A stretch of 64,000 nucleotides of DNA from Escherichia coli. GTDB lineage: Bacteria; Pseudomonadota; Gammaproteobacteria; Enterobacterales; Enterobacteriaceae. Position numbers and translations under genes: made by a program. The stretch lies in NCBI RefSeq assembly GCF_011045215.1, contig NZ_CP049201.1; one strand, written 5' to 3'. Each line of letters begins with the position of its first letter. Position 1 is the stretch's first letter. Positions 29,705 to 32,793 of the stretch are shown one piece after another. Below the pieces are notes generated by a model, which was not told where the DNA came from, searched no databases, and saw only the letters and a program-made list of their open reading frames with translations.

Positions 29705-31078
29705 TTATTTTAATAACCGCACCCGGCACGTTTTTCCTTTAATCTTCCCGCCCTGTAACTGTTTCCATGCTTTATGAGCAACAGCCTGACGGACCGCGAC
29801 ATAGACATGCGCCGGATGCACGGCGATTTTGCCAATATCTGCGCCATCAAGCCCGATATCTCCTGTCAGTGCACCTAATACATCACCCGGGCGCATTTTG
29901 GCTTTTTTCCCGCCATCGATACACAACGTTGCCATTTCTGCTTCCAGCGTCGCAATGGAACTATTAGCTGGCGGCGTTTGCCAGTTAAGTTTTATCTGCA
30001 ACATGTCAGAAATGATATTGGCCCGCTGTGCTTCTTCCGGAGCACAGAAACTGATCGCCAGACCGCTATTTCCTGCACGAGCTGTACGACCGATGCGATG
30101 TACATGAACTTCAGGGTCCCACGCCAGCTCAAAGTTCACCACCAGCTCAAGCGATTTAATATCCAGACCACGCGCAGCAACATCAGTCGCGACCAGTACA
30201 CGGGCGCTACCGTTAGCAAAACGTACCAGGGTCTGATCGCGATCGCGTTGCTCCAAATCGCCGTGTAATGACAATGCACTTTGCCCTACTTCATTCAGCG
30301 CGTCGCAGACAGCCTGGCAATCTTTTTTGGTATTGCAAAACACCACGCAAGAGGATGGCTGATGCAAGCTTAATAACCGTTGCAACAGAGGAATTTTGCC
30401 TTTGCTGGATGTCTCATAAAATTGTTGTTCAATGGGTGGCAAAGCATCTGTTGAGTCAATTTCAATCGCCAAAGGATCGCGTTGCACTCGTCCGCTGATT
30501 GCAGCGATGGCTTCCGGCCAGGTTGCCGAAAACAGAAGCGTCTGTCGAGATGCTGGCGCAAAACGGATGACATCATCAATGGCATCGCTAAATCCCATAT
30601 CCAGCATGCGGTCGGCCTCATCCATCACCAGCGTATTCAACGCATCCAGTGATACCGTGCCTTTTTGCAGGTGATCCAGCAAACGCCCCGGCGTTGCCAC
30701 GATAATATGCGGCGCATGTTGCAACGAATCACGCTGCATACCGAACGGTTGACCACCGCACAACGTCAAAATTTTGGTATTTGGCAGAAAACGCGCCAGC
30801 CGACGCAATTCACCTGCCACCTGATCCGCCAGTTCACGCGTAGGACACAGCACTAAAGCCTGGGTTTGAAATAGCGACGCATCAATTTGCTGTAACAAGC
30901 CGAGGCCAAAAGCCGCCGTTTTGCCGCTGCCGGTTTTCGCCTGCACGCGAACATCTTTTCCGGCAAGGATCGCCGGAAGCGCGGCGGCCTGCACCGGCGT
31001 CATGGTTAAATAACCCAACTCATTAAGGTTCGTGAGTTGGGCGGGAGGCAAAACATTCAGGGTAGAAAAAGCGGTCAC
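29705..31078 (-). CDS. dbpA: ATP-dependent RNA helicase DbpA
   Basis: DEAD-box motifs (AKTGSGKT, DEAD, SAT). Confidence 0.9.
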   Translation of the reverse strand: MTAFSTLNVLPPAQLTNLNELGYLTMTPVQAAALPAILAGKDVRVQAKTGSGKTAAFGLGLLQQIDASLFQTQALVLCPTRELADQVAGELRRLARFLPNTKILTLCGGQPFGMQRDSLQHAPHIIVATPGRLLDHLQKGTVSLDALNTLVMDEADRMLDMGFSDAIDDVIRFAPASRQTLLFSATWPEAIAAISGRVQRDPLAIEIDSTDALPPIEQQFYETSSKGKIPLLQRLLSLHQPSSCVVFCNTKKDCQAVCDALNEVGQSALSLHGDLEQRDRDQTLVRFANGSARVLVATDVAARGLDIKSLELVVNFELAWDPEVHVHRIGRTARAGNSGLAISFCAPEEAQRANIISDMLQIKLNWQTPPANSSIATLEAEMATLCIDGGKKAKMRPGDVLGALTGDIGLDGADIGKIAVHPAHVYVAVRQAVAHKAWKQLQGGKIKGKTCRVRLLK

Positions 31079-31338
31079 AATCTATTCTCGTGGTCATCGA
31101 CGCAAAGTTAGCAGGCGCGTATCCTCGCAGATCTACGCTCACGATGCGACAATTTAATCGGTTCTTCATCGGGTGGTGGGTCAGGCATGGGTTGCGGGCG
31201 AGGGATCGGATCGGGCACTGGAACAGGATCGCCAGGAATCGGTTCAGGGACAGGAATTTGCAAATAAATAAGTGTCGTCATATTTCCCTCTGGTCATTGG
31301 GTGGACTCTTAAAGGGTAGACGCTGATAAATAACAGGC

Positions 31339-31459
31339 AAAAAAAAGCCGACTCATCAAAGTCGGCGTCGTACGAATCAATTGTGCTATGCAGTAATTCA
31401 AAAAAGGAAGTAAGACAATATGGAGCGCAACGCCCATCGCTTGACGTTGCATTCACCTG
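31339..31459 (-). ncRNA. fnrS: FnrS small RNA
   Basis: Reverse complement reads GCAGGTGAATGCAACGTCAAGCGATGGGCGTTGCGCTCC...GACGCCGACTTTGATGAGTCGGCTTTTTTTT with terminal hairpin; lies between zntB and dbpA as expected. Confidence 0.75.
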
Positions 31460-31555
31460 CAAGAGAGATATTGCCCTGAATGGGTAGAGAGTTTATTGAC
31501 TTCGCTCAAACTTTGCGGCGTTTTTGTATACAGACAGCCGGAAAAATTGCTTTTG

Positions 31556-32560
<1,005 letters not shown>

Positions 32561-32793
32561 TTATTTTGTAGTCTAGCCTTCTGGCCCTGTTACGCAACAT
32601 CTCATCACCCCATTACCCTGAAATGATTAATAAAATTCTGTCTAAATTGAATACAAAAAGCAAAATGCTTTTCCGTATACAAACCGTGTGAAGTGTTAAA
32701 TAGCGTCTATCATTATCAGAATTATCTGATCATATGACGTGGCTTTTTTGCGATCGGATAGCAACAAAAATTGATAAAAATAATGGGATCTCA

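Follow-up and report, generated by a model that had tools for sequence, protein, structure and literature searches.

The proline-rich ORF between FnrS and dbpA in Escherichia coli is ynaL, probably a free-standing small-protein gene whose 3' end overlaps a putative dbpA promoter

We found that a 57-codon proline-rich ORF between FnrS and dbpA on the minus strand of the E. coli contig NZ_CP049201.1 (assembly GCF_011045215.1) is ynaL, and it is very likely, taking all parts of this explanation together, that this known gene is free-standing, that its proline-rich core is the selected part of its product and that its tail overlaps the promoter of dbpA. The window, meaning the whole stretch of DNA that was analysed, is 64,000 nt long. 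A preliminary description of it, made from the letters alone, had presented the ORF as unannotated and had offered two readings, a genuine small protein or a conserved leader peptide. Our finding is a rediscovery of an annotated and experimentally detected gene, and in that respect it was already known. The two C-terminal forms of the family, its linkage to FnrS and the promoter embedded in the E. coli gene are not in the one ynaL paper or in the annotations that we consulted.

Results

The ORF is ynaL, an annotated and experimentally detected gene

The genes and signals at this locus are as follows.

31343..31460, minus strand: FnrS sRNA gene (Rfam RF01796, 134.8 bits, full length)
31366-31347, minus strand: FnrS terminator stem, with a T-run to about 31339 (terminator scan)
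31286..31290, minus strand: ynaL Shine-Dalgarno (SD) sequence GAGGG, five bases upstream of the ATG start
31108..31281, minus strand: ynaL coding sequence (from sequence, RefSeq annotation, Pfam PF23677 with E=2.1e-40 and published protein detection)
29705..31078, minus strand: dbpA (DEAD-box helicase), beginning 29 nt after ynaL at a GTG that is preceded by a weak SD, ACGAGA

The ORF translates to MTTLIYLQIPVPEPIPGDPVPVPDPIPRPQPMPDPPPDEEPIKLSHRERRSARIRAC, 57 codons followed by TAA, exactly as first described, and the composition reported for it also holds, with 16 prolines in 57 residues, eight D and E, seven K and R, and a basic last third. Length alone is uninformative here, with 63 ORFs of at least 25 amino acids overlapping the 4.5 kb around ynaL. 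The start is better marked: a GGAGG-type SD before the ATG is conserved across genera at a fixed offset.

The stretch that carries ynaL was found in 5392 of 5426 complete E. coli genomes, and among the matches listed RefSeq names the gene ynaL and its product "proline-rich small protein YnaL" or "protein YnaL" (WP_001296046.1). Since Pfam likewise holds a YnaL family (PF23677), the ORF is unannotated only with respect to a track cut off at 60 amino acids. The translation scores 136.9 bits against the PF23677 model, where the cut-off is 27, and residues 1-57 align to profile positions 1-57, a full-length match above the gathering score. The slot between fnrS and dbpA is likewise occupied in RefSeq, in six other genera and in 40 FnrS-anchored loci of the forms called A and A' below.

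The same 57-amino-acid sequence was reported between fnrS and dbpA by VanOrsdel et al. 2018 (PMC6001520), who gave the chromosomal gene a 3' SPA tag, saw the protein on immunoblots of LB cultures and suggested that ynaL and dbpA form an operon. The E. coli ORF and their YnaL (also PF23677) agree in sequence, position and strand, and we found no difference between them. The call of a genuine small protein was right, although the tagging experiment had already established it, and ribosome profiling, which had been named as a check, agrees as well: ynaL was a previously unidentified positive of a tetracycline ribosome-profiling screen, according to the same paper (PMC6001520). Our search of the literature on YnaL function returned nothing later, with ynaL in this sense mentioned only by VanOrsdel et al. 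2018. We consider it practically certain that this ORF is ynaL, a small-protein gene of Enterobacteriaceae that is already known and is translated.

Two observations concern the distribution of this stretch. In one E. coli genome (NZ_CP087578.1), the region is split into two places, with 58% coverage, and the ORF is annotated as a hypothetical protein, probably because something has inserted into ynaL or nearby. Of the 5394 places that match this chromosomal stretch, six are on records labelled as plasmids.

The conserved part of YnaL is its acidic proline-rich core

31162..31230, minus strand: conserved proline-rich core, codons D18-E40 (DPVPVPDPIPRPQPMPDPPPDEE); pS 0.67, pN/pS 0.14

A protein search recovered 162 relatives, all with PF23677, from Escherichia, Salmonella, Citrobacter, Enterobacter, Klebsiella, Raoultella, Kosakonia, Leclercia, Lelliottia and other genera, and the order zntB - ynaL - dbpA - convergent ttcA is identical in six genera besides Escherichia. 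Conservation of the frame across Enterobacteriaceae, the other check that had been proposed, is thus borne out. In the alignment, the N-terminus is variable, while DPVPxPDPIPRPQPMPDPPPDEEPIKLSH...RSARIRAC is nearly invariant. The hydrophobic start pointed out in the preliminary description varies among relatives and is missing from the B forms described below.

We found that the core, which includes a near-invariant PDPPP and is the part shared with the B-form homologues, has a pN/pS of 0.14 at a pS of 0.67, compared to 0.11 at 0.68 for dbpA (seven genera). Its variable columns fall at codon positions 1, 2 and 3 in 11, 9 and 27 of 39 cases. These values show that the core is under ordinary protein-level purifying selection, as strong as that on dbpA. 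The conserved part of YnaL is the acidic proline-rich core and not the basic tail, and this core is probably functional.

The length of YnaL varies in frame. E. coli E69 (locus L063) carries a 46-amino-acid form that lacks 11 codons between the direct repeats PVPEPIP and PVPDPIP, and forms of 62-85 amino acids occur among the relatives from the protein search. Within E. coli, such variants suggest repeat slippage, alternative start calls or both.

The family has two C-terminal forms and follows FnrS with or without dbpA

To sample the family with less bias, we scanned one genome per species for an exact 23-mer of FnrS, which gave 120 loci across Enterobacterales, and searched downstream of FnrS with a YnaL profile and with DbpA. 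Of the 113 loci of sufficient length, 84 have a proline-rich ORF with an SD and an ATG at a nearly fixed offset after FnrS. The slot of the YnaL homologue lies about 55-65 nt after the FnrS terminator and is found in Enterobacteriaceae and Erwiniaceae. Among the 120 loci, 32 carry form A, eight form A' and 44 form B, and 21 have none.

Form A, to which E. coli belongs, has the tail RSARIRAC and the dbpA start 14-30 nt downstream of the ynaL stop. Form A' ends 57-62 nt ahead of dbpA, with a TAG, TAA or TGA directly after ...PIK(L/M)S(H)R; its hosts include Enterobacter cloacae, E. quasihormaechei, a Lelliottia, Kosakonia cowanii and Pseudescherichia vulneris. Form B has the core SDPVPTDPVPxPDPIPRPQPxPDPP, ends in ...DPDPHPIIDPPPH (tail PIIDPPPH) and has no adjacent dbpA. 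It occurs in Pluralibacter, Cedecea, Siccibacter, Buttiauxella, Trabulsiella, Phytobacter, Erwinia, Pantoea, Mixta, Winslowiella and others. Among the FnrS-anchored loci, we found no proline-rich ORF after FnrS in Pectobacterium, Dickeya, Brenneria, Hafnia and Serratia, in most Lonsdalea loci or in one of the two Edwardsiella loci.

The gene that follows the B form is the convergent ttcA, and a strong GC-rich hairpin lies in the 31-53 nt that separate the stop codons of the two genes. The B core has a pN/pS of 0.28 and the B tail PIIDPPPH one of 0.14 at a pS of 0.66 (n=36-40). Other frames of the B form give ratios above 1 or contain stops, except for the antisense frame that shares the wobble positions, and this frame has stops in 9 of 40 sequences. 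The YnaL model PF23677 matches the B forms only over the proline-rich core (profile positions about 8-42), with scores of 19-44 bits that fall on either side of the cut-off of 27. Since the B forms are under selection where no co-oriented downstream gene is present to be led, the family neither arose as a dbpA leader peptide nor is one in general.

The invariant tail of E. coli ynaL is conserved as DNA and contains a putative dbpA promoter

31144..31161, minus strand: block E1 (CCGATTAAATTGTCGCAT), codons P41-H46, at about -47 to -30 of the putative promoter P2
31114..31134, minus strand: block E2 (AGATCTGCGAGGATACGCGCC), codons R50-A56, the putative dbpA core promoter P2
31129-31127, minus strand: putative extended -10 TGC of P2, by sequence
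31126-31121, minus strand: putative P2 hexamer GAGGAT, a 3/6 match to TATAAT
31120-31114, minus strand: conserved GC-rich discriminator ACGCGCC of P2, with a predicted transcription start site at about 31113 (MG1655 about 1409476)

The last third of the E. coli ORF is invariant in another way than the core. Its P-I-K and S codons and its S-A-R-I-R-A codons show no synonymous change (pS=0), and all five of the E2 codons whose amino acid is invariant keep their wobble base, compared to 10.4% in dbpA of the same genomes (chance about 1e-5). This wobble invariance means that something other than the peptide constrains E1 and E2. The basic tail to which the preliminary description drew attention is therefore present and conserved, but as DNA and not as a peptide.

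E1 is near-invariant across 40 unique sequences and is kept in Kluyvera, where the ORF is deleted. E2 persists untranslated in the eight A' species, where its spacing to the dbpA start is unchanged; it is likewise kept in Kluyvera and is found only where dbpA is adjacent, and its main variable base among the 40 unique sequences is the n of TGn. The Kluyvera case is a natural ynaL deletion: in two loci (L054 and L072), about 150 nt covering the proline-rich ORF are missing, roughly 100-270 nt after the FnrS anchor, and the -10-like element of the putative ynaL promoter P1, E1, E2 and dbpA remain.

We compared these sequences with those upstream of dbpA genes that are not linked to ynaL, anchoring them 39-45 nt before the dbpA start and aligning them on the hexamer. 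The E. coli group and Franconibacter read TGC-GAGGAT-ACGCGCC at the E2 position. Upstream of unlinked dbpA, the same position reads TGC-TAAACT-ACGCGCC in Winslowiella, TGC-TACACT in two Erwinia, TGC-TAGAAT in Dryocola, TGC-TAATAT-GCGCGCC in Buttiauxella and TGC-TAGCAT-ACGCG(T/C)C in Siccibacter and Cedecea. Canonical hexamers stand at the P2 position in five other genera, and the E. coli group has a TGn together with a hexamer that carries A at -11 and T at -7. From these comparisons, we infer that E2 is dbpA's own core promoter, through which the E. coli ynaL frame reads. Such a promoter overlap would explain why the wobble positions are invariant and why loss of the tail has been tolerated repeatedly. 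E1 is absent upstream of the unlinked dbpA genes, which have canonical -10 hexamers; it accompanies a poor hexamer, GAGGAT, and may act as an activator or UP-type site. A sigma-70 promoter scan of 30900-31700 returned no site at its thresholds, and we found no published promoter for ynaL or dbpA in the literature and annotation sources.

Coding sequences that hold the promoter of the next gene are a general and well-known bacterial arrangement. The 3' codons of ynaL would resemble it in overlapping the extended -10 and the discriminator of dbpA, with synonymous change suppressed. Unlike the general case, the ynaL ORF appears to have been extended into the promoter, as relatives that stop earlier have the same promoter untranslated.

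Our scans gave no RNA-level explanation of either block. RNAalifold gave no conserved structure (-14.6 kcal/mol with a covariation term of +1.06 for 7 sequences; -3.9 kcal/mol for 40 sequences), and the models contain only a 5-bp hairpin over the dbpA start. Rfam detected only FnrS at the gathering threshold and nothing in 30950-31350 at E<=10. By eye, E1 looked complementary to FnrS, and we considered pairing of FnrS with E1, E2 or the dbpA start; we rejected it because duplex energies were unremarkable against 3198 background windows, with the best leader site at the 10th percentile, E1 at 76% and E2 at 47%.

The dbpA start is a GTG with a weak SD in all Enterobacteriaceae examined, with a TTG in Kosakonia cowanii (L022). 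No nucleotide varies in codons 1-4 of dbpA (GTGACCGCTTTT), and codons 1-15 together have a pS of 0.28 compared to 0.68 gene-wide.

A putative ynaL promoter lies directly after the FnrS terminator

31335..31340, minus strand: putative P1 -35 TTGCCT, formed by the FnrS terminator tail (from comparison of genomes)
31310..31320, minus strand: putative P1 -10 region (TCTACCCTTTA), with the core hexamer TACCCT at 31318-31313 and a predicted transcription start site near 31306-31309 (MG1655 about 1409280-1409283)

In every ORF-bearing lineage, the spacer between FnrS and the ORF contains a CTA(C/T)(G/C)CTTAA-like sequence 16-18 nt downstream of TTGCC(T/A); in Enterobacteriaceae, the tail of the FnrS terminator itself supplies this upstream element. 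The spacer of 16 nt between the two elements is conserved in the seven genera aligned, and Erwinia and Pantoea have TTGCCA 16-17 nt before the -10. The E. coli -10 region matches 9 of 11 positions of KCTAYRCTTAA, including the C at -13; this is the sigma-S-type -10 consensus of Weber et al. 2005, as cited in PMC5650638. A match of at least 9/11 occurs, at a fixed position, in 74 of 87 ORF-bearing loci compared to 3.7% of shuffled spacers. The motif is mostly missing at loci that lack the ORF, with Kluyvera as a case where it is kept. Together, these patterns suggest that the -10 directly after the FnrS terminator probably drives ynaL. Whether it would do so under sigma-S control is, judged by the consensus match, an evenly balanced question.

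On the minus strand at 31310-31340, the FnrS terminator tail (TTTTTTTTGCCT) also serves as the -35-like element of the putative P1. The terminator of an sRNA would thus overlap with the promoter of the gene that follows.

YnaL is predicted to be an extended polyproline protein

AlphaFold2 run with the family alignment returned an extended chain that has no secondary structure (pTM 0.23), with a pLDDT of about 90 only in the proline-rich middle, and we found no solved structure in the PDB that is related to YnaL by sequence. As judged from this model, YnaL is probably an extended acidic segment of polyproline-II type with no globular fold. Ribosomes stall at polyproline stretches, and EF-P is needed to translate them. 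A PPP in a stall-enhancing context, DPPPD, is found in six of seven genera, and B forms carry one or two PPP motifs. From the near-invariant PDPPP motif, synthesis of YnaL is predicted to be EF-P-dependent.

We also considered a relation to TonB. YnaL resembles the proline-rich spacer of TonB in its alternating X-Pro composition and probable extended polyproline-II conformation, but unlike TonB it has no transmembrane anchor and no C-terminal domain. The resemblance is compositional only, as the scores lie far below the cut-offs (20.8 bits vs 315 for NCBIfam NF008084 and 11 vs 33 for Pfam TonB_N), and the relation was rejected.

Other observations in the neighbourhood

At about 32553-32600 on the minus strand, directly upstream of zntB, RefSeq annotates a 15-codon gene under the gene name "ydaN" with the product "protein YnaN". 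On the other side of dbpA, the Rac prophage integrase gene intR adjoins ttcA in K-12-type genomes (in the window, this is the region upstream of ttcA, at about 28.6 kb), and a phage integrase fragment follows ttcA in a Citrobacter locus (L006). Since integrase sequences lie next to ttcA in both, the ttcA flank appears to be an integration hotspot.

Discussion

Three other explanations of this ORF have to be weighed. The leader reading, in which ynaL acts in cis on dbpA by delivering ribosomes to the GTG start or unmasking it, or by stalling at DPPPD to tune dbpA, draws on real features: the two genes share a strand, the terminator scan found no terminator between them, the gap in A-form species is short, dbpA starts with GTG behind a weak SD, DPPPD is near-invariant, and an operon has been suggested (VanOrsdel et al., PMC6001520). 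These features stand against five others. At the 44 B-form loci, an ORF under purifying selection has no co-oriented gene downstream, only the convergent ttcA and the intervening hairpin; eight species end the ORF 57-62 nt before dbpA; Kluyvera has lost it and yet keeps the blocks upstream of dbpA; an extended -10-like element 39-45 nt before dbpA, inside the 3' end of E. coli ynaL, is present by sequence in all genera, so that dbpA appears to have a promoter of its own; and the alignments of 7 and 40 sequences gave no conserved alternative structure, attenuator or sequestration of the SD (-3.9 kcal/mol with 40 sequences; positive covariation term with 7). The proline-codon leader ORFs mgtP (of mgtCBR) and mgtL (of mgtA) in Salmonella tune expression downstream. 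Like them, ynaL is a short upstream ORF on the same strand with consecutive proline codons, and sensitivity to EF-P or Pro-tRNA would be expected of it. Unlike ynaL, where we found no conserved structure, mgtP and mgtL sit in long structured leaders with alternative stem-loops, and the gene after ynaL has its own putative promoter, while the ORF persists where that gene is absent. We judge a cis-acting leader improbable, and the preliminary description's suggestion of a conserved leader peptide is not supported for dbpA. Some translational coupling of ynaL and dbpA may occur in E. coli and other A-form species, given the GTG start, the weak SD, the gap of only 29 nt in E. coli and the lack of an intervening terminator; no observation needs it, and as a general role it is contradicted.

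The basic C-terminal tail (HRERRSARIRAC) might instead be a functional peptide module, for instance a tail that binds RNA or DbpA or an arrest motif like that of SecM, which is GIRAGP. The invariance of S51, R53, I54 and R55 in the alignment, the adjoining RNA helicase gene and a superficial IRA likeness between RIRAC and GIRAGP speak for such a module, and ynaL further resembles the SecM and TnaC arrest peptides in being a small ORF upstream of a gene with a conserved C-terminal peptide. However, the zero synonymous variation places the constraint on nucleotides, species that do not translate this DNA retain it all the same, stops of three kinds (TAG, TAA and TGA) mark independent losses of the tail, the residues after RIRA vary (stop, I or CRSSVL), and B forms carry an unrelated tail. 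Unlike in SecM and TnaC, then, the tail of YnaL is conserved at the DNA level, dispensable and variably terminated, and we therefore rejected SecM-like arrest at RIRAC-stop and consider a peptide module of any kind very improbable. The remaining explanation, that the ORF is a chance or non-functional frame or that the conserved feature is an RNA element or a gene on the antisense strand, has a negligible probability. The many ORFs of similar length nearby would allow a chance frame, and an antisense frame with the same wobble positions gives a similar ratio by construction, but the SD and ATG are conserved at a fixed offset, pN/pS is 0.14-0.28 at saturated pS, antisense frames have stops in 4-15 of 40 sequences, the permissive Rfam search gave no match, and the protein has been detected, so that the published tagging effectively refutes a chance frame.

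We therefore return to ynaL as a stand-alone gene whose tail overlaps a promoter, a reading that we hold with good confidence. In it, ynaL would be transcribed from its own promoter, with the sigma-S-like -10 element and a -35 supplied by the FnrS terminator tail, and the strong SD and ATG would give efficient initiation of a product that acts as a polypeptide. The acidic proline-rich core, with D-P-x-P repeats ending in PDPPP, would be the selected part. The last third of the E. coli ORF (PIKLSH...RSARIRAC) would cross the extended -10 promoter of dbpA, TGC-GAGGAT-ACGCGCC, together with block E1, and these elements would be constrained as DNA, with the peptide tail itself not conserved as a peptide. 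In E. coli, transcripts of dbpA could then have two sources, this internal promoter and read-through transcription that begins at the ynaL promoter.

It is unlikely that in the E. coli clade the extension of the ynaL frame across the dbpA promoter couples dbpA to stationary phase or to EF-P and proline status. If it did, coupling would take place through promoter occlusion or bicistronic ribosome supply, with transcription from the sigma-S-like ynaL promoter, and ribosomes on an EF-P-dependent polyproline ORF, crossing the promoter and 5' end of a gene for a ribosome-assembly helicase. In the same reading, though as a separate matter, the acidic polyproline protein that ancestrally lay next to FnrS may serve a dedicated role in the cell.

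The E. coli tail also carries a caution, namely that invariance of amino acids does not indicate peptide function unless synonymous sites have been checked. Our analysis gives precise putative promoter positions for ynaL and dbpA, and it shows that in Erwiniaceae and other Enterobacteriaceae the YnaL family is also present, there as a stand-alone, FnrS-linked gene whose product has a different C-terminus.
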